Notes: generated by a model from the sequence alone, not told the origin. A stretch of 64,000 nucleotides of DNA from an uncultured Alphaproteobacteria bacterium (GCA_963713695.1 CAVQMU010000002.1:564041-628040); one strand, 5' to 3'; shown: positions 9,650 through 50,400, numbered from the stretch's first letter. Made by a program: numbers and translations.

Positions 9650-10471
9650 TCAGCCGGAAAGTTCGCCCGCGCGCCGCGCCGCCGCTTCCGTCGCCCGCGC
9701 CATCAGGGCGGCGAGGCCGTCCGGGGCCATCAGCGCTTCGAGCGCCGCCTGCGTCGTGCCGCCGGGCGAGGTGACGTTTTTCCGCAAGGTTTCGGCTGAG
9801 GTTTCGGGCTGGAGGCGCAGTAATTCGCCCGAGCCCTCGACGGTCTTTCGCGCCAATCGCAGCGCCAGGTCCTGCGGCAGGCCGAGCGCCGCGCCGGCCT
9901 GCGCGAGCGCTTCGACGAGATAAAAGACATAGGCGGGGCCGGAGCCGGAAATCGCCGTCACCGCGTCGATCAGCCCTTCGAACTCAACCCATTCGACCGC
10001 GCCGACGCCGCCAAGCAGCAGATCGGCCTGATTCCGCTGCGCTTGCGATGTGGCGGCGCTGGCGAAGGCGCCGGTGATGCCGCGTCCGATCGCCGCGGGC
10101 GTGTTCGGCATGGCGCGGACGATGGAGGCAACGGGGAGGCGCGCCGAGAGATTGGCGATGGTCTTGCCGGCGAGGATGGATATGAGCAGGCTCCCCGTCG
10201 CAAACAACGGGGCCAGCGCGCTGGCGGAGGCGTCGAGCATCTGCGGCTTGATCGCCAGGACCACCACGTCGCTCGGCCTCGGCTCCGGGTTGAGCGCAAA
10301 TCCATTCGTCGCGGCGAGAGACGCGATCGCCTCGGAGGGATGCGGTTCGAAGACGGCGATGCCCCTGGCGTCTATGCCCGAGGCGAGCCAGCCGCCAAGC
10401 AGGGCCGCGCCCATCTTTCCTGCGCCGACAAGAGCGAGCGACGATTGCGCAATCGGGTCACGCGCGGACAT
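9650..10471 (-). CDS. proC: pyrroline-5-carboxylate reductase
   Basis: LALVGAGKMGAALL…VVLAIKPQ…ISGSGPAYVFYLVEAL…GGTTQAALEAL. Start ATG at 10469-10471 overlaps the ybjN stop (TAATG). Confidence 0.9.
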   Translation of the reverse strand: MSARDPIAQSSLALVGAGKMGAALLGGWLASGIDARGIAVFEPHPSEAIASLAATNGFALNPEPRPSDVVVLAIKPQMLDASASALAPLFATGSLLISILAGKTIANLSARLPVASIVRAMPNTPAAIGRGITGAFASAATSQAQRNQADLLLGGVGAVEWVEFEGLIDAVTAISGSGPAYVFYLVEALAQAGAALGLPQDLALRLARKTVEGSGELLRLQPETSAETLRKNVTSPGGTTQAALEALMAPDGLAALMARATEAAARRAGELSG

Positions 10472-22778: not shown

Positions 22779-22839
22779 TATCTGCTGGCGCCCGAAGGCA
22801 AAGGCCCCTAAATTGCGGTTGCGGCGCTGCGGGGTGCGT

Positions 22840-23110
22840 GAGGACATTTCCCCGGGGCCTTACGATCCCCTAGGGAGCTGTCCCTGTCTTGGTCCGTGGA
22901 CCTTGGCACATGGCGCCCACCTACTCTGTAGGTACCCGGGATCACGTCCCACGGCTTTTGTGGCCCGCACCCCCTCTCAGTTTCCCTTCTCCCCTTGCGG
23001 GAGAAGGTGGTCCGAAGGACCGGATGAGGGGACCTCGCGGCGCGTCCCCCTCATCCGTCTCGCCGCTGCGCGTCGATCCACCTTCTCCCGCGAGGGGAGA
23101 AGGGTTGCGC
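22840..23110. repeat. REP/MITE-like palindromic intergenic element (nested inverted repeats)
   Basis: CCTTCTCCCCTTGCGGGAGAAGGTGG … CCACCTTCTCCCGCGAGGGGAGAAGG and GGATGAGGGGAC … GTCCCCCTCATCC form nested palindromes. Such elements give spurious ORFs of the type …SPLAGEGGPKDRMRGP…, as in the listed ORFs 22889..23266 and the 5' part of 22813..23742. Confidence 0.5.
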
Positions 23111-23136
23111 GGCGGTGTTTGCGGCCAATTTCAAAA

Positions 23137-23742
23137 ATGCTGCCGCCTATGCTCTTCGACAAATCCTTCCTGCGAGTCCGGTTACGCGAGGCGCGCGCCG
23201 CAATTTCCGATGCGGCGGCCACGGCAGCCGCATGCAAAATTGCCGCGCGCGCGCTCCCTTTCATAAAAACCCTTTCCGCCGCCGCCCCTCCGAAAACCCC
23301 CGTCGCGCTTTACAACGCCTTGCCGGGCGAACTCGATTGCCAGCCCTTGCTGCGCGCTCTCTTTGACGCCGGCTATCCGACATTGCTGCCTGTCGCCGGC
23401 GAAAAGGCGACGCCTCTGACCTTTCGGCTTTGGCGGCCCGGCGACGCGCTGGGCTCCGGGCGCTATGGCTTGCGCGAACCACAGGACACCGCGCCCGAAA
23501 TGGCGCCCAAAATCCTGTTCGCGCCGCTGCTCGGCTTTGACGAAAAAGGCGGCCGGCTCGGCTTTGGCGGCGGCTATTACGACGTCACCCTCGCGCGATT
23601 GCGCAAAAAGGGCCTGGTCGCCGCAGGCGGGCTGGCCTTCGCGCTGCAGAAAATCGACGCCGTCCCCACGGAAGCGCACGACGAACCGCTCGATTTCGTG
23701 GTAACGGAAGACAACCTGCTTGATTTTCGCTTGGATCGATAA
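23137..23742 (+). CDS. 5-formyltetrahydrofolate cyclo-ligase
   Basis: …LPGELDCQPLL…LLPV…TFRLW…GLREP…ILFAPLLGFDEKGGRLGFGGGYYD. The N-terminal part of the long ORF from 22813 overlaps the repeat element and is not coding. Confidence 0.8.
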   Translation: MLPPMLFDKSFLRVRLREARAAISDAAATAAACKIAARALPFIKTLSAAAPPKTPVALYNALPGELDCQPLLRALFDAGYPTLLPVAGEKATPLTFRLWRPGDALGSGRYGLREPQDTAPEMAPKILFAPLLGFDEKGGRLGFGGGYYDVTLARLRKKGLVAAGGLAFALQKIDAVPTEAHDEPLDFVVTEDNLLDFRLDR

Positions 23743-24554
23743 TGCGTCTTTTGTTCATTGGCGATGTCGTCGGCCGCTCCGGCCGCGCCGCCATCGCCGA
23801 GCATGTGCCGGCGCTCCGCAAAAAACTGGAGCTCGATTTCGTTGTCGCCAATGGCGAGAACGCCGCCGGCGGCTTCGGCATCACCGAGGCGATCGCCCAG
23901 GAGTTCCTCAACGCGGGTGTCGATTGCATCACCCTCGGCAATCATTCCTTCGACCAGCGCGAAGCCCTCGTTTTCATCGAGCGCGCGCCACATGTGCTGC
24001 GTCCCATGAATTATCCCCAGGGAACGCCTGGCCGGGGCGCCTGGATGTACGAAACCCAAAAAGGCGAGCGCGTGCTGGTGATGAGCGTCATCGGCCGCGT
24101 TTTCATGGATGCGATGGACGACCCCTTCGCCGCCGTCGAGAAGGAGCTTGCCGCCTGTCCGCTCGGCCTTGCCTGCGACGCGGCCATTCTCGACATTCAC
24201 GCGGAGGCGTCGAGCGAAAAGCAGGCGCTTGCGCATTTCGCCGACGGCCGCGTCTCGCTCGCCGTGGGCACGCACACCCACGTGCCCACCGCCGATGCGC
24301 GCATTCTGACCCATGGCGCTGCCTTCCAGACCGACGCCGGCATGACCGGCGACTATGACTCGGTCATCGGCATGGACAAGGAGGAGCCGATCCGCCGCTT
24401 CACCCGGAAGACGCCGGGCTCGCGTTTCGAGCCGGCGGAGGGGCCGGCGACCCTGTGCGGCGTTTTCGTCGAGACGGGCGGCGACGGACTGGCGAAACGG
24501 GTGGAACCCCTGCGCATCGGCGGCAGGCTGGCGCAGGCTGTGCCCGGCCTTTGA
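23742..24554 (+). CDS. YmdB-like metallophosphoesterase (TIGR00282-type)
   Basis: MRLLFIGDVVGRSGR…DFVVANGENAAGGFGIT…GNHSFDQ…MDAMDDPF…DIHAEASSEKQAL…. Confidence 0.85.
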   Translation: MRLLFIGDVVGRSGRAAIAEHVPALRKKLELDFVVANGENAAGGFGITEAIAQEFLNAGVDCITLGNHSFDQREALVFIERAPHVLRPMNYPQGTPGRGAWMYETQKGERVLVMSVIGRVFMDAMDDPFAAVEKELAACPLGLACDAAILDIHAEASSEKQALAHFADGRVSLAVGTHTHVPTADARILTHGAAFQTDAGMTGDYDSVIGMDKEEPIRRFTRKTPGSRFEPAEGPATLCGVFVETGGDGLAKRVEPLRIGGRLAQAVPGL

Positions 24555-24563
24555 CCGCAGTCG

Positions 24564-25031
24564 CTATAGTCCCAGGTCGCTCAGGCCGGGATGATCGTCC
24601 GGACGCCGGCCGAGCGGCCAGTGGAACAGCCTGTCCTGAGGCTTTATCGGCAGGTCGTTGATGCTGGCGAAGCGCCGGCGCATCAGGCCGCTGTCCTCGA
24701 ATTCCCAATTCTCGTTGCCATAGGACCGGTACCAATGGCTACTGTCGTCATGCCATTCATAGGCGAAGCGCACGGCCAGGCGATTGTCCCTGAAGGCCCA
24801 TAGTTCCTTGATGAGGCGATAATCCAGTTCGCGCGCCCATTTGCGTTCGAGAAACTTTTGCGCCTGATCTCGCCCGATCGGGAATTCGGCGCGGTTCCGC
24901 CAGATCGTATCGAGCGTGTAGACTTGGGCGACCCGCGCAGGATCGCGTGAATTCCAGGCGTCTTCGGCCAGACGCACCTTTTGCGTCGCGGTTTCGAGAG
25001 TGAAGGGCGGCAGCGGCGGCTTCGTTTCCAT
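24564..25031 (-). CDS. DUF1348-family protein (NTF2-like fold)
   Basis: [50 protein letters not shown]… Start choice is uncertain (alternatives at 25046 or 25103). Confidence 0.7.
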
Positions 25032-25209
25032 TGCGTCGATCCCCATGCAGGCAGGTCTTTCAAAATCTAGCATAGCCAATTCGACTTCGTCGTCCCGCCC
25101 CACTTTTCAGCCGCCTTGCGCCCGTCTATAAGGCGCGATCCAGATTTTAAGCCCTGCTGCTGGCTTGCCAGGCCGGTGGGGGCGTTACGAAAAACGATCA
25201 GGGGCAGAA

Positions 25210-25956
25210 ATGGCCGGGCATAGTCAGTTCAAGAACATCATGCACAGGAAGGGCAAGGCTGACGCCGCCCGCTCCAAGCTTTTTTCCAAGCTCGCGCGTG
25301 AAATCACCGTCGCCGCCAAGATGGGGCTGCCCGACCCCAACATGAACGCGCGCTTGCGCGCCGCCTGCATCGCCGCGCGCGTCGAAAACATGCCCAAGGA
25401 CAATATCGAGCGCGCCATCAAGAAAGCCTCGGGCGCCGACGGCGAGAACTACGACGAGGTGCGCTACGAGGGCTACGCCCCGGGAGGCGTCGCCGTGATC
25501 GTCGAAGCCCTGACCGACAACCGCAACCGCACCGCAGGCGAAGTGCGCTCCTACTTCACCAAGGCGGGCGGCGCCCTGGCCGAAACGGGCGCGGTCTCCT
25601 TCATGTTCGATCATGTCGGCGAAATCGAATTCGACGCCAAGGCGGCGAGCGAGGACGCAATGATGGAGGCGGCGATCGAGGCCGGCGCGGAAGATGTCGT
25701 CTCAACGCCCGAGAGCCACGAGATCACCACCACGCTCGAGGACCTCGTTGAAGTGACCAAGACTTTGGAGGCGAAATTCGGCGAGCCCAAGAAATCGAAG
25801 CTCGTCTGGAAGCCGCAGAACACGATAGCGGTCGACGACGAGGCGGGCGAAAAGATCCTGCGCCTGATCGGCTCGCTCGAAGACAATGACGACGTGCAGA
25901 ACGTCTACGCCAATTTCGAGATTTCCGACGCGCTGATGGCGAAAATGGGCGGCTGA
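25210..25956 (+). CDS. yebC: YebC/PmpR-family DNA-binding transcriptional regulator
   Basis: [39 protein letters not shown]…RLRAAC… canonical YebC N-terminus. Confidence 0.9.
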
Positions 25957-25983
25957 TTTCGCCCGCTATCACCGGCGTCTTGA

Positions 25984-26016
25984 AACACCCGCTGGCCAAC
26001 CCAGCGGGTGTTTTCG
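25984..26016 (+). terminator. rho-independent terminator after yebC
   Basis: ACACCCGCTGG-CCAA-CCAGCGGGTGT followed by TTTCGC. Confidence 0.55.
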
Positions 26017-26101
26017 CTGGCGTCGTGGCGCTGTCGTGGCGCATGCGGCCAGTTCGTCCTAACCTTCGGCAGATTTGGATCCTCGATCGGAGGCTGGGGA
26101 A

Positions 26102-26704
26102 ATGGCGATGCCCTTTAATGGCCGGCGTCTGCAAAAACTCCGCGCGGAACGCGCCTGGACGCAGGAGCAGTTGGCGGAAGTCTGCGGATTGAGCGCCCGG
26201 ACGATCCAGCGGCTTGAGCGCGGGGGCAGGGCGTCGCCCGAAACGGTCGGAACGATTGCCGCTGTGTCCGGGGTGGCCGTCGGCGAATTTCTGGTTGTGG
26301 CCAGGCCCCGAATGAAGTTCGGAATCCGCCGGATTACGCCCATGACCGTTCTGGACGAGATAAATTCGGCGGTCGCCGATTATCTTTCGCTGGGATTTGC
26401 CTTGATCGAAACCGGAGATCGCGGTTGCCTGGGGTTGCGGGCGGGGGAGGGCGGCATCATTTTCGCCAGCGCCGATTTTCTGCGCGGCGATTTCGAGGAA
26501 ACCGCCGTCTCCCGCTTCGTTGGACGGACCATCCCCTATCTCCATGTCGGCTGTGTCGACGGCGCGGAAATGCGGCTGCCGCCGTCCGCACGCGTCGTCC
26601 AGAAGGTTGTAACGCGCGGCGCGACCAAGGAAATGCTGGTCGAACAGGACGGCCGTTACTCGATTTTCGCGGAGAAAATCGCCGCAGAGGGCGCGCCCGC
26701 TTGA
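26102..26704 (+). CDS. XRE-family HTH regulator with a C-terminal VOC/glyoxalase-like domain
   Basis: HTH LRAERAWTQEQLAEVCGLSARTIQRLERG. The C-terminal half resembles the VOC fold (…YLSLGFALIETGDRGCLGLRAGEGGIIFA…). Confidence 0.65.
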   Translation: MAMPFNGRRLQKLRAERAWTQEQLAEVCGLSARTIQRLERGGRASPETVGTIAAVSGVAVGEFLVVARPRMKFGIRRITPMTVLDEINSAVADYLSLGFALIETGDRGCLGLRAGEGGIIFASADFLRGDFEETAVSRFVGRTIPYLHVGCVDGAEMRLPPSARVVQKVVTRGATKEMLVEQDGRYSIFAEKIAAEGAPA

Positions 26705-26719
26705 ACGCCCAGGCGCTGC

Positions 26720-26962
26720 TCAGCCCCGCTTTCGTCGAAACTCCCGGCGGCGGGGAAGCAGGCTGAACTCTCCGCAGTAGCGGCACAGCAGCGCGGGGTC
26801 GCCGGTCATCGAGCCCGGATCGAAGGCGATCAGAATTGTGTAGTCGCAATGGCCGCAGGCATAGTCGTCGCTCCCCGGCAAATTCAATCTGTCGGCGCCG
26901 ATCAGCTTCACCTTGGCGTCAGCGTCTACCTGGCTGATCGGCAACATTTTTATCCGCGCCAT
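26720..26962 (-). CDS. small (80 aa) CxxC…CxxC zinc-ribbon-like hypothetical protein
   Basis: …DYACGHCDYTILIAFDPGSMTGDPALLCRYCGEF… Lies divergent from the MCP-PilZ gene. Coding status is uncertain. Confidence 0.4.
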   Translation of the reverse strand: MARIKMLPISQVDADAKVKLIGADRLNLPGSDDYACGHCDYTILIAFDPGSMTGDPALLCRYCGEFSLLPRRREFRRKRG

Positions 26963-27250
26963 ACCTAAACGCCTCCGCTTTCCTTAACTCAGGTTCCTTA
27001 CGATCGGCGGAAGGGGAAGTTTCGAACATGCACTGTTGAGACGCGAATGGGGGAGCCATGCCTGCGATGTTGTTGGCGCATCGTAATATAAGCTTACCTA
27101 ACGTAAGCATGTATCAATAGAAATAAGGTATGTTGCGCGATAAGACAACAAAATAATGTAAAAATACCCGTAAATTCATAATTCGTTAACCAATACTTGT
27201 TAAAAACATGGTGTAATTTTGCTTTTGACCACTTTGTCGGACATTCAGGC

Positions 27251-29242
27251 ATGAATTTAACATTGCGCAGCGCGGGGCTCGCGGCCATTTCCGTCCTGCT
27301 TGCGGCGAGCGCGGGAACCATGGCCATTTCATTCTGGGCGAAGGGCGCGGCGCTGGAGCGGGCCGTCGCCGTCTCGAAGATCAATGCGCAGACACGCGAA
27401 GTGGTGATGCCTCTTGTCACGCTGATCAAGGACTTGCAGATCGATGTCGTGCAGGTCCAGCAGTTCCTGACCGACACTTCGGCGACGCGTGGTCTTGACG
27501 GTCTTGACGACGGTGTTGGCGAAGCCGCGAAGTTCGCCGAAAAGTTCGGCAAGGACGCAGAAGAGGCGCGCAAATTGGCCACCCGGCTTGGCGACGGAGA
27601 ATTGAAGGCCGGACTGGACCGGACGATCGAGGCTTTCCCGGCATATTACGCCATGGGGCGCAAGATGACGGAAGCCTATGTCGCGGAGGGGCCGGCCGGC
27701 GGCAACAAGCTGATGAGCGGCTTCGACAAGGTCGCCGACGCGCTTTCGGGCGAACTGGAAAAAGTGGTGAAACGGCGCGACGCCATTGTCGACGAAAGCG
27801 CCCAGCGAAGTCGCGATGACCTGAGCGAACTGGAGGGCACGATGTCGCGCGCCTCCAATCTCACCATTCTCGCCAATATGCTTTCGCTGGTTGTCCTGGG
27901 AATCGCGGCCGTCGGGCTGTTGAGGCGGGTCATCGGGCCGGTGCTGGAAATGGCCGGCTTTCTCGAAAATCTTGCTGAGGGCCATCTCGAAATGACGACG
28001 CGTCTGGGCGAGGGACAAGATGAAATTGGCCGCATGGCGCGCGCCGCCGACGTATTTCGCGAGAACGCCGTCGAGCGCGAGAGGCTTGAGGAGACCGCGC
28101 GAACCGAGCGCCAGACCGAGTTGCAGCGTCAGGCGCGGCTGGAGGAATTGATCGCGCAGTTCCGCACCGTGATCGGCGAGATCGTCATGTCCGTGGGCGC
28201 GGAGGCGGAGACCATGAGCGGCACGGCGAGCAAGCTCAACGACGTCGCTTTCCGCGCCGAACGAACGGCGGATTCCGCTCGCGTTGCGGCTGAGGAATCC
28301 TCGCACAACATCCGCGCCGTCTCCGTCGCGGCCGAGCAATTGAGCGCTTCGATCACCGAGATTTCGCAACAGATTCGCGGCGCCGGCGAAAAGGCCAGCG
28401 AGGCCACCGGCATCGCCCGCCGCACCGACGTGAATATTTCGAGCCTGGTCGAACTGGCCGGCAAGGTGGAGGCTATCGTCGCCTTGATCCGGGGCATCGC
28501 CCAGCAAACCAATCTCCTGGCGCTCAACGCCACCATCGAGGCGGCGCGCGCCGGCGATGCGGGCAAGGGATTCGCTGTAGTGGCGTCTGAAGTGAAGATG
28601 CTCGCCGGCCAGACCGCCAAGGCGACGGATGAGATCGCCGCGCAGGTCGCTGCGATCCAGCACGCCACCCAGGGCGCCGTCGAGGATCTGCGGGCAATCG
28701 CCAGCGCCGTGGCCGAAATCGACGAAATGACGAATGCGGTTGTTGCGTCGGTCGCGCAGCAGAGCGAGGCCACCGGCGAAATCGCCAGCTCGATCTCGCG
28801 CGCGTCGGACAGTTCCAGCACGGCTTCGCAAAATGTCGCCAGCGTCGCCCTGGTGATCGGCGAAACCAATTCCGAGGCTGGTCGCGTCACGACCGCCACG
28901 GGGCTCCTGTCGGGATCGGCGAAGCAATTGGCGGAGGCGGTCGAAAAATTCCTGCGCGACGTGACCCAGGATGTGAAAAACCGCCGCGCCGCCACGCGCC
29001 GGCTTTCGACCGAGGGCGTGGTGATTTTCACCAATGGGCTGCGCGCAAAAACCAAATTGATTGATATTTCGGATACGGGCGCCAAGCTGATCGCCCCCGA
29101 GGCATTGCGGAACGGCGACAGCTTCGTGATGGAATTCGAGGACGAGAGCAGGGCGCAGGCGCGCGTGGTCTGGTTGCGTGAAGGATTCGCCGGCGCGCAG
29201 TTCGATGTACCGCTGGGCGCGCGAGGCGACCAGGCTGCGTGA
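27251..29242 (+). CDS. methyl-accepting chemotaxis protein with a C-terminal PilZ (c-di-GMP-binding) domain
   Basis: N-terminal TM and sensor region, HAMP, MCP signalling domain (…[37 protein letters not shown]…). C-terminus has PilZ motifs RRAATRR (RxxxR) and DISDTG (DxSxxG). AT-rich promoter region 27090-27250 upstream. Confidence 0.9.
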
Positions 29243-29412
29243 TGTTGCGCAGCTCGCCCCGGGGCGAAGGGCGGAGCGACGGGACCGCGCGGGCGGGGCG
29301 GTTTCATCTGACTGTCATATATAGCTTTTAGACCTTCCCTAAGGTCATGACGCGGTCCGGCCATCTGACCTCGCCAATCGTGATCGCAATCGCGCAGACT
29401 TCAGGGATTCTC

Positions 29413-30878
29413 ATGCCGTATCGCTCTTCCGCGCTGAAAGGCGCGCTTTTGATGTCTGTGGCCCTGGCAACTCCGTCGCTCGCCGACACGACGCCCTTCG
29501 CTTTCACCACCGGCGATCTCGTCATCAGCACGGTGGCCGGAACGACGCTCGACACGGCATCGCCGATCACGCTCGATGAATTCAGCCTCAACAGCGCGGG
29601 AACCTCGGCATCCCCCGACGGAACCCTGGCTTTGCCGCAGACGGCGAGCGGCGCCAATTCGGCGATTTCAGGCGAATATGGTTCGGCCTCCGAGGGCTTT
29701 TTGCAGCTTTCCGGCAATGGACAGCTCCTCTCCATCGTTGGCTATGGCGTCAACGCCAGCGCGTTCAACTCCGCGGCGTTGGCGACCTACGGCACGACTG
29801 CGCTTGGCCAGACCACGAGCCTGCTCGCCAATCAGCAGACGGGCGCGATCTATACGACCGTGCCGCGCGTCGTCGCCCTGATCAACGGCACGGGCAATGT
29901 CGATACGACGACCGCTCTGACCGGCGTGTTCAACACCAACAATCCGCGCAGCGCCTATACCGTCGATGGCTCGACCATCTATGTGTCGGGCCAGGGCGCG
30001 TCCAAGACCGACACGACGCAGGGCGTATTCGTGACGACGCGCGGCTCGACCACGGCTACGGCGATTGACACGTCCTCGGACACCCGTTTTGTCACCGGAT
30101 ACAACGGAACGCTTTATGTTTCGCGCGACCAAGCCCCTCCGGGACAGGCGCTGTCAACAATGTCACGAATGTCAGCAGCCTGACCAATGGTTCAGGCAGC
30201 ATGCCGACGTCTTCGGCGGGATTGATCACGACGCATATCACGCCGCCCGCATCGCCCTATTCCAGCGGCGCCAACAACGGCTCGATCAATCTGACGGCGG
30301 CGCTGGCGAACGGTGTCAACAATGCCCGTATCGGCAGCTTCGTTTATTTGAGCCCGGAAGAATACTTCTTCGCCAATCCGACGACGCTTTACGTCGCCGA
30401 CAGCGGCCAGCCCAAGAACGGCAATGTCAACAAGGCGGGGCTCGGCGAAGGCGGATTGCAGAAATGGTCGCTGATCGGCGGCGTCTGGACGCTCGACTAC
30501 GACCTCGTTTCGGGCCTCAATCTCGTCAACAACGCCAATGCTAACGCCGCTACGCCGACGGCGCCGGGCGTCACTGGCCTGTTCGGCCTGACCGGCAAGG
30601 TCGTCAACGGCCAAGTCGAACTCTTCGCCACGAGCTACGGCCTGAACGAATTGTCGCCGAGCTATCTCTACGAGATCACCGACAATCTCTCGGCTGTCAC
30701 CATTGCCAACGGCGAAAGCTTCACGACGCTCTATTCCGCGCCCTCCGATGTTTCGATCCGCGGCGTTTCCTTCGCGCCGTCCGTCCCGGAACCCTCGACC
30801 TGGTTGATGATGCTGATGGGCTTTGCGGGCCTCGGCTTTGCCTCCTATCGCAAGGCGCAGTCCCAGTCCGCAGTCTGA
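29413..30878 (+). CDS. PEP-CTERM-anchored secreted protein (Thr/Gly/Asn-rich); reading frame interrupted by a 1-nt indel near 30131-30137
   Basis: Signal peptide MPYRSSALKGALLMSVALATPSLA. C-terminus …VPEPSTWLMMLMGFAGLGFASYRKAQ is the PEP-CTERM sorting motif. ORF 29347..30183 (frame 1) and ORF 30201..30878 (frame 0) join if one base is restored in the CCCC run at 30134-30137, giving …YVSRDQAPSGTGAVNNVTNVSS…. Confidence 0.7.
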
Positions 30879-30898
30879 TACTGAAGACCTCGCCAACA

Positions 30899-30926
30899 AA
30901 AGGCCGCCGTGGGGCGGCTTTTTCTT
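30899..30926 (+). terminator. rho-independent terminator after the PEP-CTERM gene
   Basis: AGGCCGCC-GTGG-GGCGGCTT followed by TTTTCTTTATTT. Confidence 0.55.
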
Positions 30927-31084
30927 TATTTGGCTTGCAAGCAACGTTTCCGCGTAAATCGCTTCAACGTTTGTCAAGGATAGCCAATAAAAATCCGGCT
31001 TCTAGCTTGGACGCCGCCTTGCCGTCCCGGCGCCCCTGCGGCAGACTGTCGAGGCAATTGCGCATTATCCGGGATTGACTGCAA

Positions 31085-32917
31085 ATGGATTATATTCTTG
31101 TCGCGGCCCTGCTGATTGCCGCCGCCCTGCTGGCGCCGCGTTTTCTTCGCCCCGATCTGCCTAAACGCGACCTTGTCGTCTCGGGATTGCGGGTCATTCT
31201 CGGCCTTGGCGCGCTCGTCGCCATACTCGCGACCAGCGTCGTCACCGTTCCCGCCGACCGCGTCGGCATCGTCAAAAAGCTTTACGGCTTTTCGAACCTG
31301 CCGGAGGGCCGCCTGATCGCCGTCAACGGCGAGACGGGCTACCAGGCGCCGATCATTCCGCCGGGCACATGGCGCATTTCGCTCCTGTTCAACCTGTTCA
31401 ACAGCATCGAAACCGTGCCGCTTGTGGTGGTGCCCAACGGTTTTTACGGGCGCATCGTGTCGCGCGACGGAGCGCCGCTGGGCGATAGCCAGATCATGGC
31501 CGACGCATGGCCCGAAGCGGAGTTCTCCAATTTTCTCAATGCCGAGTATTTCCTGACCCATGGGGGCCAGAAAGGCTTGCAGCTCAGCGTGCTGAAGCCC
31601 GGCGCCTATGCCGTCAATCTCGCCTTGTTTGAAGTGCGCGTCGGCTATCGTCCCAATGACCGCGACATTACCAAGTCGACCGACGATGTCTTCGACATTC
31701 ACGGCATGCATCAGGAGTCGACCCCGCTTACGACCGAGATCACTCATGTTCCCGCGGGATCGGTTGGCGTGGTGCGGTCCTCGGTGGAGGAGAAAGGCAA
31801 GAATTGCCAGCCGATCAAGGCCAAGGCAGATTCTGACGGCCTCGTCGCCGAACTCGTGCCGCCGGGCTGCAAGGGGGTCTGGAACGCCTCGCTGCCGCCA
31901 AACGATTATTATCTCAATCGTGACGCCAACGAGGTGGTGATCGTCTCGACGCGCGTCACGACGATCGAGTTCAAAGGCGGCTATGACCGACGCTACATCG
32001 ACCTGAAGGTGGATGGAAAGGGCGACTTCGCCCAGACCGAACACACGGCGCATTTTCTTGATATCGGCGACGACCGGGCGATCAACACCAAGGTCGAGGG
32101 ATGGGAAATCCCCCAGGAACTGCGAGCCGTCGTGCAGATATCGCCGGAGCACGCGCCCATCGTTGTCGCCGCCGTCGGCGGCCAGACGGAAGTCGACCAG
32201 CGCATCGTCATCCCCTCGATTCGCAGTCACGTGCGCAATGTCTTCGGCGGCTTGGTGACGGTGGCCGGCGATCCCGCCAAGGGCGAGCCGGCGACAGTCA
32301 CCCGCCCGACGCGCGTGCTCGACACGGTGGAGCAGCGTCCGGCGCTGGAAGAATCGATCCTCAAGCTGGCGCGCGAGGACGGGCGACGCGCGGGCGTCGA
32401 CATCAAGGAAATACGCCTGGGCGAAAGCGCCATTCCGCCCGAACTGCTGCTGGCGCGCCAGCGAGAACAGCTGGCGATCCAGCTGAAGGCCGCCTTCATC
32501 CAGGAACAGGCGGCGCAGACGCAGAGGCAACAGACGGAACAGGCGCGCGCCACGGCCGAACAGCAGTCTGAACTGGTCAAGGCGCAGATCGCCGTGCAGA
32601 CGGCCAGGCTTTTGCAGGAGCGGCGGCAGGCCGAAGGCCATGGCGAAAGGCTGTTCCTCGAAGAGCAGGCGGCGGGCCAGACCGCGCAGGCCAATGTGCT
32701 TGGAAAGGACAATGTGCTGAAGTTGCAGATGTTCAACCGGTCGCTCGAGTTGCTTGGCGCGCACCCGGAGCTGGTGTCCAATCTTGTCCTGCCGAAGTTT
32801 TATGTCAGCGGCGGCGGCGGGTTGGAAGGCGCTGCGGCCATCTTCGGCGGGTTGATGTCGGGAACGGCGCAGAACGGCGCGAGCGCGACGCAGGACAAGC
32901 CGGCGCAAGCAAGGTAA
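31085..32917 (+). CDS. SPFH/band-7 (flotillin-like) membrane protein with a long C-terminal coiled coil
   Basis: N-terminal TM, SPFH core, then a Q/A/E-rich coiled coil (…LAIQLKAAFIQEQAAQTQRQQTEQARATAEQQSELVKAQIAVQTARLLQE…). Confidence 0.8.
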   Translation: MDYILVAALLIAAALLAPRFLRPDLPKRDLVVSGLRVILGLGALVAILATSVVTVPADRVGIVKKLYGFSNLPEGRLIAVNGETGYQAPIIPPGTWRISLLFNLFNSIETVPLVVVPNGFYGRIVSRDGAPLGDSQIMADAWPEAEFSNFLNAEYFLTHGGQKGLQLSVLKPGAYAVNLALFEVRVGYRPNDRDITKSTDDVFDIHGMHQESTPLTTEITHVPAGSVGVVRSSVEEKGKNCQPIKAKADSDGLVAELVPPGCKGVWNASLPPNDYYLNRDANEVVIVSTRVTTIEFKGGYDRRYIDLKVDGKGDFAQTEHTAHFLDIGDDRAINTKVEGWEIPQELRAVVQISPEHAPIVVAAVGGQTEVDQRIVIPSIRSHVRNVFGGLVTVAGDPAKGEPATVTRPTRVLDTVEQRPALEESILKLAREDGRRAGVDIKEIRLGESAIPPELLLARQREQLAIQLKAAFIQEQAAQTQRQQTEQARATAEQQSELVKAQIAVQTARLLQERRQAEGHGERLFLEEQAAGQTAQANVLGKDNVLKLQMFNRSLELLGAHPELVSNLVLPKFYVSGGGGLEGAAAIFGGLMSGTAQNGASATQDKPAQAR

Positions 32918-32928
32918 GCGCGTTCGCC

Positions 32929-33343
32929 TTATCGCGCTTCCATGGCCGCCAGCATGGCCGCCATTTTCTCATGGACGACCTGGATAGCCTTGAGCGGACG
33001 CAGCATGACCTTGAAACGGTCGATGCGTCCGTCCGGGTTCCAGCCGATGATATCCACGCCATTGACCTCGATCGAACCGATCCGCGTCGAAAACTCCAGC
33101 ACGGCGGAGGTTTCCCCGATCCATTCGCCGATATAGCGAAATTCGTCGCCCGACAGGACATGCAGCGCCGCATCGAGATAGAGTTCTCGTTTTGGCGCGG
33201 CCGACCTGCGGCGTATGCACGACGGGCGAATGGAAGGTCACGTCCTCGGCCAGCAGATCGTCGAGCGCCGCGGCATCGCGCGTTGCGACGATCTCATGCC
33301 AACGTTGCAAGGCGGGAGGTCGGTGTCGGTTTGCATCGCTCAT
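32929..33343 (-). pseudogene. NTF2/SnoaL-like small protein with an apparent 1-nt frameshift in an AAAA run (about 33188-33191 on the minus-strand sense)
   Basis: N-part MSDANRHRPPALQRWHEIVATRDAAALDDLLAEDVTFHSPVVHTPQ (frame A) continues as …KRELYLDAALHVLSGDEFRYIGEWIGETSAVLEFSTRIGSIEVNGVDIIGWNPDGRIDRFKVMLRPLKAIQVVHEKMAAMLAAMEAR in frame B. Removing one A from GCCAAAACGAG restores a single 138-aa ORF. Confidence 0.6.
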
Positions 33344-33547
33344 GGGCGGCCCTCGACTGGGGGATTGGCAGGCCGGATCGGACGGCCGGGCGTCCCTTGA
33401 ATACAGAGGTTGACTCATTGGCGCTAGAAGCGAGGCCCTCAAAGAAAAGGCGATTATATTTTTTACAAGCAAGGGACATCTTTGCCAAAGAAAAAGCCTC
33501 GGCGCGAACGCCGAGGCTTTGCTTGTCTTGACCGGGAAGTCCCGTCG

Positions 33548-35452
33548 TTACACGCCCTTGTTTTCGAGCGCCGCCATGATCTCGTCCATGATCGAGGGAT
33601 CGTCGATGGTTGCGGGCATGGTCCAGGGATCGTGATCGGCGATCTTCTTCATTGTTCCACGCAAAATCTTGCCCGAACGCGTCTTTGGCAGACGCGAGAC
33701 GCAAATGGCGATCTTGAAGGCCGCGACAGGGCCGATCTTGTCGCGCACCAGCTTGACGATGTCCTTCTCGATTTCGAGCGGCGAGCGGGTCACGCCCGAT
33801 TTCAGCACGACGAAGCCGCAAGGCTGCTCGCCCTTCAACTCGTCCTTGACGCCGATGACCGCGCATTCCGCGACATCCGGATGCGAGGCCAGCACTTCCT
33901 CCATGCCGCCCGTCGAAAGCCGGTGGCCCGCGACGTTGATGATATCGTCGGTGCGGCCCATGATATAGAGATAGCCGTCCTCATCGACGAAACCGGCATC
34001 GGCGGTTTTGTAATAGCCGGGGAAATCCTGCAGGTAGGACTCGCGCATACGGCCGTCCTGCTTCCACAGGGTCGGCAGATTGCCGGGAGGCAGCGGCAGC
34101 TTCACGACGATCGAGCCCATCTTGCCGGTGCCCACGGGATGGCAGCCCTCATCGACAATCTGGATATCGTAGCCGGGCATGGCCACCGTGGGAGAGCCGT
34201 GCTTGACCGGCAGGGCGCCGAGGCCAATGGGATTGCCGGCGATGGCCCAGCCGGTTTCGGTCTGCCACCAATGGTCGATGACGGGAACGCCCAGTATCTG
34301 CTCGGCCCAGGCGACGGTGTCCGGATCGGCGCGCTCGCCGGCCAGGAACAAGGTGCGCAGGCATTTGCCGACATTGTATTTCTTCAGATATTCGGCGTTC
34401 GGGTCTTCCTTGCGCACGGCGCGGAAGGCGGTCGGCGCGGTGAACAGCGCGGCGATGTTGTATTCCTCGATCATTCGCCAGAAAGCGCCCGGGTCGGGCG
34501 TGCCGATCGGCTTGCCCTCATAGACAACCGTTGTCGCGCCGTGCAGCAGCTGGGCGTAGATGATGTAGGAATGGCCGACCACCCACCCGACGTCGGAAGC
34601 GGCCCAGAAAACCTCGCCGGGCTCGATGCCATAAAGGTTTTTCATCGTCCATTTCAGCGCCACGGCATGGCCGCCGTTGTCGCGCACCACGCCCTTCGGG
34701 ACGCCCGTGGTGCCTGACGTATAAAGGATATAGAGCGGATCGGTCGCCTTCATTTCCTCCGGCTCGACCGTGCGGCGCTCCGCCAGCGCCGCAACGACCA
34801 GATCGCCCCAGTCGAAATCGCGTCCGGGGACCATCTTGGCCGGCTCCTGCGGGCGCTGGAGCAGCAGAACCTTCTCCGGCTTGACGGCGGCGAGGTCAAT
34901 GGCCTCGTCGAGCAAAGGCTTGTACTTGACGACGCGGTTCGGCTCGATGCCGCACGATGCGGCCAGGATCATCTTGGGTTCGGAGTCGTTTATGCGTGTT
35001 GCGAGCTCCTTCGACGCGAAACCGCCGAACACCACGGAATGAATGGCGCCGATGCGGGCGCAGGCGAGGACGCCGATCACGGCCTCCGGGATCATCGGCA
35101 TGTACACCAGCACCCGGTCGCCCTTGCCGACGCCGAAATCCTTGAGAACGGAAGCGACCGCGTTCACTTCGGCCAGCAATTGCTCATAGGTGTAGGTGCG
35201 CTTGATGCCGGCGACGGGGCTGTCGTAGATCAGCGCGGCCTGTTTGGCGCGGCCGCCTTTCACATGCCGGTCGAGCGCGTTGTAGCAGGTGTTGAGCGTG
35301 CCGTCGGGGAACCAGTGACCAAAGACGCCGGCGTTCGGGTCGAACACGGTCTTGGGCGGCTTGATCCAGTCGATCTCCTTGGCGGCTTCCGCCCAGAATG
35401 CGAGCGGTTCCTTCAGCCAGGATTGATAGATTTCAGGGTAGCGGCTCGCCAT
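33548..35452 (-). CDS. propionate/acetate-CoA ligase family acyl-CoA synthetase (PrpE-like)
   Basis: AMP-binding signature YTSGTTGVPKGV…; …WWQTETG…; C-terminal …SRLPKTRSGKILR… Start MASRYPEIYQSW at 35452. Confidence 0.85.
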   Translation of the reverse strand: MASRYPEIYQSWLKEPLAFWAEAAKEIDWIKPPKTVFDPNAGVFGHWFPDGTLNTCYNALDRHVKGGRAKQAALIYDSPVAGIKRTYTYEQLLAEVNAVASVLKDFGVGKGDRVLVYMPMIPEAVIGVLACARIGAIHSVVFGGFASKELATRINDSEPKMILAASCGIEPNRVVKYKPLLDEAIDLAAVKPEKVLLLQRPQEPAKMVPGRDFDWGDLVVAALAERRTVEPEEMKATDPLYILYTSGTTGVPKGVVRDNGGHAVALKWTMKNLYGIEPGEVFWAASDVGWVVGHSYIIYAQLLHGATTVVYEGKPIGTPDPGAFWRMIEEYNIAALFTAPTAFRAVRKEDPNAEYLKKYNVGKCLRTLFLAGERADPDTVAWAEQILGVPVIDHWWQTETGWAIAGNPIGLGALPVKHGSPTVAMPGYDIQIVDEGCHPVGTGKMGSIVVKLPLPPGNLPTLWKQDGRMRESYLQDFPGYYKTADAGFVDEDGYLYIMGRTDDIINVAGHRLSTGGMEEVLASHPDVAECAVIGVKDELKGEQPCGFVVLKSGVTRSPLEIEKDIVKLVRDKIGPVAAFKIAICVSRLPKTRSGKILRGTMKKIADHDPWTMPATIDDPSIMDEIMAALENKGV

Positions 35453-35681
35453 CTTGTTTCCTCTCGCGTTTCGGTCGCGAAATAGGCTTCGCGGGTCCGG
35501 TTTTTGCATCGGAAATTGCGCCGGCCCGCACGATAAGTCCAGAATGGCGCGATCAACCCTTCGGCTAATATCCATTCCGACAGGTGAAGGCGAAACAGGG
35601 CTTCGCCGCGAACTGCGGCCGCCGTTGCGCGAATTTTAACGGCCGCAATGCCAAATAGACGGCTCAAGCCGCGAGCCGCCC

Positions 35682-36941
35682 ATGTCCCAGATCAATTTTT
35701 CCCGGATCAATTTGTTGGAAATCTTGCGCGAGGCGCGATGGCTCGACGCCGACCGGGCGCGCGTCTATGTGCGCATCCTCGCGGGCGTGCAGATCCTGGG
35801 CCTGATCGGCCTGTTCCTGACCTCAGGCCACGGCCTTGACAGGCGCGGCGAACCGCTGGGAACCGACTTTGTCAGCTTCTGGACGGCGGCGCGGCTGGCC
35901 ATTTCCGGCGCTCCCGCCTCGGTCTATGATCCCGCCGCCCACCACGCCGCCGAACAGGCCTTTTTTGGCGCTCGTCTCGACTGGTACGCCTTTTTCTATC
36001 CTCCGGTCTTCCTCCTGCTCTGTCTGCCGCTGGGGCTCGCGCCCTACCTCGTCGCCCTTGCGGCGTGGCTGGGCGCGACGGGCTTGCTTTACCTGAAAGC
36101 TCTGCGGCAAATCGTCGCGAATGGAATCGGCGTCTTGCCGGTCCTGGCTTTTCCCGCTGTTTTCACCACGCTCGGCCACGGCCAGAACGCCTTGCTGACG
36201 ACGGGCCTGTTCGCTGCTGGCGCGGTCCTGCTCGGCGCGCGCCCGCTGCTGGCCGGCGCCTGTTTCGGTCTGCTCTGCTTCAAGCCCCAGCTCGCCCTGC
36301 TTCTGCCGCTCGGCCTGGCGCTGGGCGGGCGCTGGCGCGCGCTCGTCGCCATGGGCGCGACGGCTCTGGCCCTATGCGTCGCAAGTTACGTCGTTTTCGG
36401 CGAGCCGACCTGGCGCGCTTTCCTGGCCGAGGCGCCGGTCGCCCGCGCCACGCTCGAACAGGGGATGGTCGAGCCGGAGAAGATGCAAAGCCTTTTCGCC
36501 GCAATCAGCATGCTCGGCGGCACGGTGGGCCTCGCCTATGCCGGACAGGCGTTGCTTGCCGGGGCAACCTGCCTTGCGCTCGCCGGACTCTTGCGCCGGA
36601 CGAAGGACGCCCTGACGCAAGGCGTGCTGATCGCAGCCGCGGCGCCGCTCGTCACGCCTTTCATTCTCGACTACGACTTGACTCTGCTGGCCCTGCCGCT
36701 CGGTTTCCTGCTGACCCGGGCTCTGGCGACGCAGTTCCTGCCCTATGAGAAAACCGTGCTGCTTGTCGCCTATATGCTGCCCGCCTTCGCCCGGCCTCTG
36801 GCGCTCTACGCTCATGTTTCGCTCGGGGCGGCGGTCGTCGCGCTGCTTTTCGCCGTCCTCGCGCGCCGGGTCTGGAATGATCGGCCCGCGGAGTTGGCGC
36901 TGTCAGTGAACGGGCGGTCCCTCGTCGCCGGAACGGCATAA
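35682..36941 (+). CDS. DUF2029/GT87-family integral membrane glycosyltransferase-like protein
   Basis: Polytopic membrane protein with …DFVSFWTAARLA…YDP…FFYPP… typical of DUF2029 (alpha-1,2-mannosyltransferase-like). Confidence 0.7.
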   Translation: MSQINFSRINLLEILREARWLDADRARVYVRILAGVQILGLIGLFLTSGHGLDRRGEPLGTDFVSFWTAARLAISGAPASVYDPAAHHAAEQAFFGARLDWYAFFYPPVFLLLCLPLGLAPYLVALAAWLGATGLLYLKALRQIVANGIGVLPVLAFPAVFTTLGHGQNALLTTGLFAAGAVLLGARPLLAGACFGLLCFKPQLALLLPLGLALGGRWRALVAMGATALALCVASYVVFGEPTWRAFLAEAPVARATLEQGMVEPEKMQSLFAAISMLGGTVGLAYAGQALLAGATCLALAGLLRRTKDALTQGVLIAAAAPLVTPFILDYDLTLLALPLGFLLTRALATQFLPYEKTVLLVAYMLPAFARPLALYAHVSLGAAVVALLFAVLARRVWNDRPAELALSVNGRSLVAGTA

Positions 36942-39755: not shown

Positions 39756-40907
39756 ATGATGGCTCTGATTGGCAATTACTTTGGGCGCGGGCCAACGATG
39801 GTGCGGCAAAAGGTTTCGACCAAATCTTCGACCTCGATCGAGGCGTTTACCGCAGCCAATCCGGAGCTGGAGGAAGAAGAGCCGGCAGTTGAAATCATGA
39901 CGCCGCCGAGGTTGGCGAATGACAGTCAGGACGACGAGCTTTCCTCGTTGATGAACGCCGTCAAGGAACAGGCGATCTTTCTCAAATGCGAGCAGTCGAA
40001 GCTCATTTCCGACTGGCAGATCGGACTGGAGCTGCTGACCAGCAGAATGGCGACATTGCAGCCGCTTTTGACGCACGCGCTGAAGTCCAACGTCGAACGC
40101 GAGCAGGTCAACAGCCGTCTGGCGGCATCCGAATCCGATCTCAAGCGCCGTCTGGCGGAGTCCGAACGCGAACTCATGCATTACCGCCCCGCGGCCCTGC
40201 AAGCGGAAGACGAACTGCGTAATGTCCGGGCCCAACTTTCCGATAACCAGCGGCACGCGATAGCTCTCGAGGCGGAGTTCGCCAAGTCGCAGGGCGCGAT
40301 CAACGATCTTTTTCAGAAAGTCACCACCGCGGAGGCCTCGCGCCAGCGGATCATCGAAGAAAATGCGGCCTATTCCCAGAAGATGCGTGAGCACGACGCC
40401 GCCCTGCAGACATTTGTGCGAGAGGCGGCGCAACTCAAATGCGACTTTGTCTCCGCCAACAGCGATGTGGAAAGGCTTGAAGCCGAGTTGGGAACGCTCA
40501 CCAGGAAATATGCCGGCGAATGCGAGGAGCACAGCCGCGTCAAGACCGCGCTGGAAACGATGCAGGCTCAGTTCGCGCAATTGCAGAAAGACAGCCTGGC
40601 GCGGGTCAAGGAGGCCGAAGAGCGGGAACGGCGCGCCGCTGAAGGGCTCTCCGTTCGAGAAAAACAATATTACGATCTCGACGTTCGACAGTCAGCCCTG
40701 GTGTCGAAGGTGGATTTCCTCACACGGACGAACCAGCGTCAGCGCGAGGACTTGCGGCGCCATATCGATCACATCGGCAACCTGGAAGCCTCCAACCGGC
40801 AACTCCTCGATGCGCTTGCGCGGAACGCCAGCGGAACGGAGGCGGTCGCACAGGATGGGATGGTTCAAGCGCCGCCAAAATTATGGGCGGTGAATGAGGC
40901 CTCCTGA
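39756..40907 (+). CDS. long coiled-coil hypothetical protein (~380 aa)
   Basis: Almost entirely heptad-like, Q/E/R/A/L-rich sequence; no recognisable enzymatic motif. Preceded by an AT-richer region with a TTGACA…TATAAA-like promoter (about 39564-39600) and small hairpins. Confidence 0.55.
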   Translation: MMALIGNYFGRGPTMVRQKVSTKSSTSIEAFTAANPELEEEEPAVEIMTPPRLANDSQDDELSSLMNAVKEQAIFLKCEQSKLISDWQIGLELLTSRMATLQPLLTHALKSNVEREQVNSRLAASESDLKRRLAESERELMHYRPAALQAEDELRNVRAQLSDNQRHAIALEAEFAKSQGAINDLFQKVTTAEASRQRIIEENAAYSQKMREHDAALQTFVREAAQLKCDFVSANSDVERLEAELGTLTRKYAGECEEHSRVKTALETMQAQFAQLQKDSLARVKEAEERERRAAEGLSVREKQYYDLDVRQSALVSKVDFLTRTNQRQREDLRRHIDHIGNLEASNRQLLDALARNASGTEAVAQDGMVQAPPKLWAVNEAS

Positions 40908-47478: not shown

Positions 47479-50400
47479 TTAAACGAACTTGAATTGCGAG
47501 GCGACCAGGCTCGACATCTGAACATTCGTCAGGGTGACGCTATCGGACGCGTCGAGCGAGATCATAGTATTCGCGCCGGACTGATGCATGTGGCTCGAAC
47601 TCGAAAGCACGGACCAACTGGAAAAATCCGATTTGCTGAACTGGATGGTGTCAGACGCCACAAAGTCATTGACGGCGTTCACGCCGATGGCCGGCTGAAA
47701 CACGAGCGCGTCCGACGTTCCAAACAGCGACAGCGAGTTTGAGCCGTACAGGTCCAAAGTGTCGCCGGCGCCGGTCACCGAGGCCTGGGCGCTGTTCACG
47801 TAGATCGTTCCGTTCGATGCGCCGACCGAATCCCAGGCGCCGCCCGTATTGTAGAGGGCCAGCGCGTCGCTGGAATTGCCGTCCAGCGTGATCGTATCGC
47901 CGCCGCCGGAGACCGAGGTCTGCGCGCCATTGATGTAGACGGCGCTGTTCGAACCGATGACCGAGTCCCAGTTTCCGCCTGTTCCGTAAAGGCTCACGGC
48001 AATGCCCGAACCGCTGGCGAAATAGACGGCGTCGCCGCCGCCCTGGATCGCCGTCTGCGCGCTGTTCAGATAGATTGCGCCCTTCGATCCATAGACCCAG
48101 TCCCAGCTTCCACCGGTGTTGTAGAGGCTTGCGGCATTGCCAGTGCCGCCGGCGAAATAAGCCTTTTCGCCGCCGCCATAGATCGCGGCCTGCGCGCCGG
48201 TCAGATAGATGGTTCCGCCGCTTGCATAGACAGTGTCCCAAATCCCCTGGCTGTAGTAGAGGCTCAAATCGTTATTTGAACCGCTGCTGAAGGCGATGGC
48301 GTCGCCGCCGCCCTGGACCGCAGCCTGTGCGCTGTTCAGATAGACCGATCCGTCGGACCCATAGACCCAGTCCCAGTTTCCGCCGGTATTGTAGAGCCCC
48401 GCAGCATTGCCGGAGCCGCTTGAGAAATTGATTGTTTCGCCCCCGCCTTGGACCGCGGCCTGCGCGCTGTTCAGATAGACGGTTCCATTTGTTGCGTAGA
48501 CCCAGTCCCAATTGCCGCCGGTGGTGTAGAGGCTCGCCGCATTGCTCGCGCCGGAGACGAAAACGATGACGTCGCCGCCGCCCTGGATCGCCGCCTGCGC
48601 GCCGTTCAGATAGACATCGCCATTCGAGCCATAGACCCAGTCCCAGTTTCCGCCGGTGTTGTAGAGGCTGGCTGCATCGCCCGAACCGCCGGCCAGATAG
48701 ACGGTGTCGCCGCCGCCATACACTGTGGCTTGGGCGCCATCGAGTTTGACGACGCCGCCGGAGCCGTTCACCTGATCCCAGTCGCCAGAGGTATTGTTGA
48801 GGTTCGCAAGGTCTCCCGAGGCGTTGGGGAAGTTCACGGTCACTCCGCCGCCGTTATCGGTGACGGCCGCGCCTGCCGCGTAGAGATTGATATCGGTTCC
48901 GCCCTGGCCGTCGGAGGAAAGGATGAAGTTCAGGCCTGCGTAATTGACGGTCGGATCGAGATTCACCTCGTAGGTCGCGCCATTGGCGACAATTTCGAGG
49001 ACATTTCCGGCGAGCAAGGTCGCGGAGCCGATTCCGTTGTACGCCACGCCGCGGAGATCGATCGTTTGCTGCACGGCCAGGGTGAAGCCAGCGACGACGT
49101 TCGTCGGCATGGCCGTCCCGTCGATCTGCAGCGTGGTCAGGCCGCCCCTGAAGGTGACGTCGCCGCTACCCTCGGACTGCGGCGTGGCAAGCTCCAGCGT
49201 GCCCAGCTCGATCGTCACGCCGCCGGTGAAAGTGTTTTGCGCGTCGAGCGTCAGCACGCCGGCGCCGTCGAGGGTCAGGCTTCCAGAGCCGGTCTGGCCG
49301 CTGGCGTCCTTTGACCCGGTCATGTCGGTTATGACATCGGAAATGGTTTCCGTCTGGCCGGCCGCGGGGGCGAAGACGATATTCTGATTGCCCTGGAGGA
49401 AAATGCCGGAGCCATAGGCCTGGCCATTGCCGCTGCCAGTGTTGCCCAGTCCGGCTGTGACCGAGCCTCCGGATAAGGAGCCGCCGTCAACAGTCAGCGC
49501 CGCGCCGCCCTGGACAAAAATACCGCCGCCCGCGCCGAGGCCGCCGCCGCCGCCTTTGCCCTCGCCGGAAGAGCCGCCGCCGAAGCCGCCAGAGACGGTT
49601 CCGGACGATGTGGCGCTGGCGCCGGCGCCGCCTCCGAAGCCGCCCACGCCGCCGCTGTTCCAAAAACTTCCGCCGCCGCCGCCGCCGAAACCTCCAGCGC
49701 CGCCGCCGACGGAGGAGCCGTTGACATAGCCGCCTAGCGTGCCCCCGCCGCCGCCGCCGAAGCCGCCAGCGCCTCCACCCGTGGCTCCATTGGCGCCGTC
49801 AACGCCACCGCCGCCCCCGCTGCCGCCCCCGCCGGCGCCCCCAGCGCCTCCCGAGGCGCCTCCCGCGGTATAACCGGATCCGCCTCCTGACGCTCCCGCC
49901 ACGATACCGGCCGCGGAGGGCGATCCACCGGATGACGCGTTCGCGTCAATGCCTCCGCCTCCGCTATCTGCGCCCCCATTGCCGCCCAAACCGCCGCCGC
50001 CGCCAAAATTGGCGATTCCGCTTCCAACGCCGCCTCCGGCTCCGCCGACGGCAGAATCGGCGCTGAAGACGACGCTGTCGAGCGTCACATTGGCCGGCGC
50101 AGCGCCGTCGGCGGAATCATTCGCCACGAACAATCCGCCGCCAAGGCCAGCGCCGCCGCCTCCGCTTGCTCCATTTGTCGAATTATCGCCGGAACCGCCC
50201 GCGCCGCCGACCGCCGCCGCGTTCGAAGATCGTCAAATTTTCAATGGTGACATTGCCTGAATAGACAAAAAATCCGCGAAAGGCGCCGGCGCCATTCAGG
50301 GTCGCGCCTGCGCCATTGATGGTCAGCGTGTCCCCGCCCTTGAGATTGATGGCTTCGAGATCGGCGGCTTCCGTCAGCGTCGCCCCGGCGCTGAGGGTAA

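Follow-up and report, generated by a model that had tools for sequence, protein, structure and literature searches.

The locus described here raises the question of whether a bacterial chemoreceptor is controlled directly by the second messenger cyclic dimeric GMP (c-di-GMP), and whether a small gene next to it takes part in that control. It occupies positions 26,720 to 29,242 of a 64,000-nucleotide stretch of DNA from an uncultured Alphaproteobacteria bacterium (GCA_963713695.1 CAVQMU010000002.1:564041-628040), which we refer to as the window, and it consists of a gene for a methyl-accepting chemotaxis protein (MCP) ending in a PilZ domain and a divergently oriented gene for an 80-residue protein with four cysteines. 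The explanation that fits the evidence best, to which we assign a probability of about 0.78, joins two statements: the MCP would be a two-input chemoreceptor reading c-di-GMP, and the small four-cysteine protein would be a functionally independent neighbour. The domain architecture of the receptor, its intact conserved binding motifs and its full-length homology to a receptor of Azospirillum lipoferum are established, as described in the following.

Architecture of the receptor and its PilZ domain

The receptor is encoded on the plus strand by an open reading frame (ORF) which ends at 29242 and offers two candidate starts, a TTG at 27197 and an ATG at 27251. Because the 663-residue product of the ATG start matches a public protein exactly (P0001; 100% identity, 100% coverage) and the orthologues begin at the identical sequence MN[LVF]T, we took 27251 as the start and 27251-29242 as the gene. 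The product is a transmembrane MCP composed of a first transmembrane segment (TM1), a periplasmic sensor, a second transmembrane segment (TM2), a HAMP linker, an MCP signalling (MA) domain and a PilZ domain at the C-terminus. Hydropathy analysis placed TM1 at residues 8-30 and TM2 at residues 204-228, with the two helices framing the periplasmic sensor and HAMP following, as expected of an MCP. The Pfam model MCPsignal (PF00015) matched with 95.4 bits, and the core of the MA domain (28433-28858, plus strand) contains the hairpin-tip block around residue 437, which is invariant in the homologue alignment A2. The HAMP linker (27917-28045, plus strand; residues ~223-265) scored only 16.9 bits and stayed under the Pfam cutoff of 25, whereas homologues exceed the cutoff at the aligned position. 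A regular-expression search for the methylation consensus [EQ][EQ]xxA[ST] returned EQLSAS at residue 362 and QQSEAT at residue 503, one on each side of the hairpin tip at ~437, and these two predicted sites suggest that the receptor is subject to ordinary CheR/CheB adaptation as well. NCBIfam yielded nothing for the receptor beyond partial matches to various named MCPs. The nearest named MCP homologues are from Rhodoblastus, and the GC content at third codon positions (GC3) of the gene is 0.78.

The PilZ domain was assigned by a Pfam scan, in which PF07238 matched residues 578-651 (28982-29203, plus strand) with 29.5 bits against a gathering cutoff of 22.5 (E 1e-6), covering profile positions 2-85 of 102. 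It carries an RRAATR motif at residues 578-583 (28982-28999, plus strand) and a DISDTG motif at residues 605-610 (29063-29080, plus strand), the latter starting 22 residues past R583. Both the motifs and their spacing conform to the published binding consensus Rx3Rx20-30[D/N]xSx2G (PMC3604760). In an alignment of 18 homologous sequences, R578, R579, R583 and G610 do not vary and S607 hardly does, and the key residues were equally conserved when only the C-terminal domains of 20 sequences were aligned. Searched as a single sequence against the PDB, the PilZ tail gave no meaningful match, whereas the top PDB matches of a profile built from the domain were exclusively solved PilZ domains, namely BcsA (E 0.002) and VCA0042/PlzD (E 0.0067), followed by PA4608/MapZ, PP4397 and YpfA with weaker E-values. 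The original prediction of an MCP ending in a PilZ domain with RxxxR and DxSxxG motifs is thereby borne out.

The same prediction had called the PilZ domain complete, which holds for the binding motifs but is doubtful at the C-terminal end. The receptors of the window clade stop ~10 residues past the last predicted barrel strand, compared to ~25 residues in Tlp1 of A. brasilense and in the A. lipoferum homologue (window 28982-29242 compared with L027:977-2971 and L026:2324-4393), and at their C-terminus, the PilZ domains of the window and Rhodoblastus clade lack ~17 residues compared with those of either protein. A preprint describes a long C-terminal helix for canonical PilZ domains and its prediction for Tlp1 and Aer (bioRxiv 10.1101/814665). 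Because of the short tail past the last barrel strand, this helix is probably absent or very short in the receptors of the window clade.

The region between TM1 and TM2 forms a periplasmic sensor of ~170 residues (27341-27859, plus strand; residues ~31-203), for which neither a Pfam model nor a PDB relative was matched. Of the 120 best MCP homologues, 55 contain its motif QVQQ[WF]LTDxSATRG, and most of these are proteins of ~574 residues without PilZ. An alignment of 12 diverse members (A6) contains 28 invariant residues, with the extended motif QVQQ[WF]LTDxSATRGxDGLxDG ... F.AYY..G..M..Y...GP..GN..M..FD. By this conservation, the sensor represents a strongly conserved, uncharacterised family, which is widespread among the MCPs of Alphaproteobacteria.

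The receptor ends in GDQAA (29228-29239). An Ala-Ala terminus is present in 32 of the 47 homologues with the PilZ motif pair and in 26 of the 73 without it among the 120 best. In Caulobacter, C-terminal tails of the AA type function as degrons for ClpXP (CtrA, McpA), and regulated proteolysis of receptors ending in Ala-Ala is conceivable.

Characterised MCP-PilZ receptors and the proposed c-di-GMP input

The MCP-PilZ architecture is not new but belongs to a known and experimentally characterised kind. According to a citation in the preprint mentioned above (10.1101/814665), a PilZ-MCPsignal fusion was already listed when PilZ was originally described. Among the 120 best homologues of the receptor, 47 possess a C-terminal pair of RRxxxR and [D/N]xSxxG motifs, and their sensors differ, being of the 4HB_MCP, Cache, NIT or TarH type or of none that was recognised. 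Two proteins that are 53-54% identical to the receptor over approximately residues 1-575 (P0003, P0004) end without PilZ, and a Rhodoblastus protein with a different sensor (P0005) matches residues 204-660 with 63% identity. Because the former share the sensor without PilZ and the latter shares PilZ with another sensor, we regard PilZ as a portable C-terminal add-on.

One of three characterised counterparts is Tlp1, an energy-taxis receptor of A. brasilense, which binds c-di-GMP with a dissociation constant (Kd) of 6.9 µM and loses binding in the variants R562A/R563A, R567D and N589A; c-di-GMP raises swimming velocity and lowers reversal frequency through Tlp1, similar to methylation-based adaptation (PMC3604760). 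We located the tlp1 gene with the PilZ region as the sole query and identified the protein (AAT76671) as AMK58_RS23785 of strain Sp7 via the positions of R562, R563, R567 and N589. Another match on an A. brasilense plasmid (H19) was rejected as a PilZ-MCP, since the tblastn alignment had crossed a stop codon and the gene codes for a 570-residue MCP without PilZ. Tlp1 and the window receptor have the same succession of transmembrane segment, periplasmic sensor, transmembrane segment, HAMP, MA and C-terminal PilZ, with RRxxxR and [D/N]xSxxG motifs at similar spacing. However, the sensor of Tlp1 is an sCache_3 domain, while that of the window receptor is of the other type without a Pfam model, the tail of Tlp1 after the PilZ barrel is longer as given above, and the similarity is limited to residues 206-580 (34% identity). 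Judged by these alignments, the two receptors are architectural analogues and not orthologues. A full-length homologue was found instead in A. lipoferum 4B, where the uncharacterised MCP AZOLI_RS26090 (WP_244442653; 36% identity over 625 residues, E 6e-80) has a sensor of the same family as well as HAMP, MA and PilZ; it differs by NLSSGG in place of DISDTG, by the longer C-terminal tail and by the lack of an adjoining small four-cysteine gene.

Two further receptors with a C-terminal PilZ domain differ from the window receptor in their input. Cbp1 of Azorhizobium caulinodans (AZC_3349) has the same MA-PilZ order but is soluble, with neither transmembrane segments nor a periplasmic sensor; it binds c-di-GMP via RxxxR with a Kd of 14.9 µM, loses binding in the R320A variant, and affects chemotaxis and biofilm formation (PMC6454048). 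In Aer of A. brasilense (AZOBR_p280026), likewise an MCP that ends in PilZ, the input is a cytoplasmic FAD-binding PAS domain; aerotaxis and root colonisation require the PilZ domain, whose deletion alters aerotaxis and abolishes the colonisation of wheat roots (PMC6406031). A comparable input into chemoreceptor adaptation (PMC6370697) is provided in Pseudomonas aeruginosa by MapZ (PA4608), a stand-alone PilZ adaptor modulating chemoreceptor methylation. MapZ, which was matched by our receptor PilZ profile, acts in trans, whereas the PilZ domain of the window receptor is fused in cis. The experiments on Tlp1, Cbp1 and Aer, which share the MA-PilZ output module, support by analogy the direct c-di-GMP input postulated for the receptor in the original prediction.

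We therefore propose the following mechanism by the example of Tlp1. The receptor would be a membrane chemoreceptor that integrates a periplasmic ligand with the intracellular level of c-di-GMP. The ligand would be read by the conserved sensor and its signal passed via TM2 and HAMP to the kinase-control hairpin of the MA domain, while c-di-GMP would be read by the PilZ domain joined directly to the C-terminal end of the second MA helix. The RRxxxR arm starts ~8 residues past the end of this helix. If c-di-GMP is bound by this arm and the DxSxxG strand as in Tlp1, it would be expected to clamp the PilZ barrel against the second MA helix and reposition it against the adaptation region in the membrane-proximal part of the four-helix bundle. 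The resulting methylation-like shift in the signalling or adaptation state, as proposed for Tlp1, would bias the control of CheA and the swimming behaviour. The binding of c-di-GMP by the receptor, its sign and its physiological output are thus predicted from sequence and analogy.

Several observations weigh against the combined explanation. The PilZ score is modest at 29.5 bits, and the short tail, with a C-terminal helix that is probably absent or much reduced, could change the coupling of the signal. No che-gene, GGDEF or EAL family was detected by Pfam among 16 proteins of the window, which were taken from 22813-36941 and from further ORFs up to 55761. Finally, the divergent spacer between the small gene and the receptor gene is conserved in three lineages, so co-regulation of the two is possible. 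The first two points, together with the coverage of the profile only up to position 85 of 102, would also fit a PilZ domain that has lost c-di-GMP binding and serves solely as a module for protein interaction or localisation, as in degenerate PilZ proteins. Nevertheless, both motifs are present at canonical spacing with key residues that vary little or not at all across the clade, and we consider such a loss of binding unlikely.

Reading of c-di-GMP by the receptor, if confirmed biochemically, would add one more member, from an uncultured soil or peat alphaproteobacterium, to the small set of chemoreceptors that sense it directly, with PilZ joined to another class of sensor. It would support the view of PilZ as a portable adaptation module gained and lost by MCPs, and opens no new question. 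The unmodelled conserved family of periplasmic sensors and the unnamed family of small four-cysteine proteins may be more useful to specialists.

The divergent small gene and the shared spacer

The small gene (26720-26962, minus strand) codes for 80 residues with a CxxC-x20-CxxC arrangement and a basic C-terminal tail, and is separated from the receptor gene by a divergent intergenic region of 288 bp with 42% GC (26963-27250), which presumably contains the promoters of both genes. An AT-rich promoter region of 160 bp had been proposed here; this agrees with an AT-rich core of ~170 bp (27080-27250; 32% GC vs. 62% for the window) but not with the length and composition of the whole spacer. The short blocks AATAATGTAAAAA, TAATTCGTTAAC and GAAGTTTCGA are conserved in the spacers of the orthologous loci L002 and L008. 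No match to the sigma-70 consensus was found in the spacer, a consensus which alphaproteobacterial promoters may not fit. A riboswitch or another structured RNA, such as a c-di-GMP riboswitch, was rejected for the spacer, which had no Rfam match at E <= 1 and a predicted RNA fold energy equal to that of shuffled sequences (z = -0.01). An ordinary promoter region is the most fitting reading of the spacer.

The two genes are paired divergently in the window and in the metagenomic loci L002 and L003 and, as far as the contigs reach, also in L004, L005 and L008. This arrangement may be taken to mean that the 80-residue protein serves the receptor as a dedicated partner, either by binding to it or by regulating its expression from the shared promoter region, and that both genes form a module. 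Several features speak for such a module: the genes are arranged head-to-head across a spacer of 272-296 bp with conserved blocks and have been kept so in three lineages at a synonymous divergence (dS) of 0.66-1.07, a gene for an XRE-type protein inserted next door in the window left the pair intact, and the tail of the small protein in the window clade is very basic (7 K/R in the last 12 residues), which is compatible with nucleic acid binding. The receptors of the three lineages are, however, still 85-88% identical, and the flanking genes for YebC, DUF1348 and YmdB are syntenic as well. Because the paired lineages are so close and their flanking genes are retained too, the adjacency adds nothing beyond shared ancestry.

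More distant relatives of either gene also argue against a module. P0124, which comes next in similarity to the small protein (60% identity), is encoded among unrelated genes without an MCP, and no similarity to MCP or PilZ was found within 10 kb on either side of 16 distant loci of the family. These loci belong to metagenome-assembled genomes of soil Alphaproteobacteria, to Stellaceae and Magnetospirillum, and to one Bryobacteraceae and one Solirubrobacterales, and were detected by a scan of genome contigs with an 18-sequence family alignment; the same scan with a three-sequence alignment of the small protein had returned no loci. The alphaproteobacterial loci have no conserved neighbour in common, and the MCP-PilZ genes of Azospirillum lack a small four-cysteine neighbour. 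As to whether the small protein is kept next to MCP-PilZ genes, the answer is therefore negative beyond very close relatives. The locus L001, whose receptor is 74% identical, is uninformative with regard to the small gene, as the contig ends behind the tail of an insertion sequence (IS) ORF upstream of the receptor gene. This C-terminal part of an ORF (L001:3-212) reads like an IstB-type IS helper protein in translation and lies ~240 nucleotides upstream of the MCP-PilZ gene, and the region upstream of the receptor is therefore an IS insertion site in at least one lineage.

Inherited local synteny with a functionally independent small protein is most likely the reason for the adjacency. We consider the two-gene module improbable, and a lineage-specific regulatory link between the small gene and the receptor would seem no more probable. 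Slightly less credence still is given to a recruitment, in which the protein with its DDxxCGHC...CxxC signature would represent a new family of small zinc-binding proteins taken up here as a regulator or partner of the c-di-GMP-sensing receptor, acting through the divergent promoter region that both genes share or contacting the short-tailed PilZ domain directly. Such a recruitment, if true, would introduce a third component into the cross-talk of c-di-GMP and chemotaxis.

The four-cysteine family and other features of the window

As a chance open frame in GC-rich DNA, a reading suggested by the many spurious ORFs of high-GC genomes, several of which overlap here, and by the lack of a database family, the small ORF is refuted by the codon-level evidence and its family membership, and we give this option almost no weight. 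It is a real gene under purifying selection. We took it as such because its ratio of nonsynonymous to synonymous substitution rates (dN/dS) is 0.11-0.22 against two orthologues (81% and 75% protein identity), the differences are mostly in third positions, GC3 is 0.79 and thus typical of genes here and level with that of the receptor gene, and a GGAGG Shine-Dalgarno sequence is located 9 nucleotides upstream of the ATG. The distant family members evolve as coding sequences as well (655/449/1692 differences at the three codon positions), and the structural model described below is confident.

The two orthologues were the only relatives recovered by a word-indexed search of 5.8 billion proteins, whereas a search of 1.84 billion representatives with a hidden Markov model (HMM) returned 42 clusters at E <= 1e-3. 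The family is one of proteins with about 72-84 residues; most of the cluster representatives have 72-113 residues, and some longer ones represent N-terminally over-extended gene calls. They share the core M.(T/R)I.M.P...GDD[FY].CGHC...FDP...GNP.YQC..C...N.LP, in which D32, D33, C36, G37, H38, C39, C60 and C63 are invariant; the four cysteines of this set are the only ones of the 80-residue protein. That it belongs to no assignable family, as stated at the outset from the sequence, agrees with the lack of a Pfam, NCBIfam, PDB or fold match. The only matches to phage proteins were weak ones to PHROG families of unknown function (best E 1.7e-4), and a phage origin was rejected.

AlphaFold2 modelled the protein with a mean confidence score (pLDDT) of 80.9 from the 18-sequence input, compared to 46 from a three-sequence input. 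In the model, strands 32-35/42-47 and 57-59/66-68 flank the CxxC knuckles. Two CxxC knuckles at a distance of 20 residues, each flanked by beta-strands, are shared with generic small zinc-ribbon proteins, from which the protein differs by an additional conserved N-terminal beta-hairpin and the invariant DD..CGHC signature. No zinc-ribbon HMM reached its threshold and no significant structural match was obtained for the protein, which is probably zinc-binding.

The alphaproteobacterial members of the family (L009-L019, mostly at ~10001-10250 of the respective locus) show GC3 values of 0.46-0.61 in loci of 55-67% GC. They are found in unrelated neighbourhoods and sometimes as two copies per metagenome-assembled genome (L013, L021). 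Their atypical GC3 hints at horizontal spread. In a subgroup from Magnetospirillum and one Solirubrobacterales metagenome-assembled genome, the small gene lies downstream of a large ORF with the same orientation, at a distance of 23-110 nucleotides (L020:58-842, L022:8174-10126, L023:35-1589, L024:8395-10210). The large ORF codes for a gamma-glutamyltranspeptidase in both cases that were checked (L022, L024), and the two genes may form an operon.

Within the window, the receptor gene is situated among housekeeping genes, namely those for RpoD, 5-FTHF cyclo-ligase, YmdB, DUF1348 and YebC. The XRE-type gene (26075-26704, plus strand) codes for a 209-residue protein with an N-terminal helix-turn-helix domain and a C-terminal half without an assigned family; it is convergent to the small gene and lies 15 bp from its stop codon. 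It is missing in the orthologous loci L002-L004, in which YebC comes immediately after the small gene. Four ORFs of 610, 383, 884 and 560 residues (31085-32917, 39756-40907, 47479-50133 and 50183-51865; GC3 0.72-0.80) matched no Pfam family at E <= 1e-5. Just downstream of the receptor gene are two adjacent ORFs (29347-30878, plus strand), the first coding for 278 residues without an assigned family and the second for 225 residues ending in a PEP-CTERM/PEPxxWA sorting signal. A further nucleotide second-messenger component is encoded farther downstream (52474-55764, plus strand) in the form of a 1096-residue protein, in which a SAM domain is joined by the catalytic domain of an adenylate/guanylate cyclase and an AAA_16 ATPase domain.

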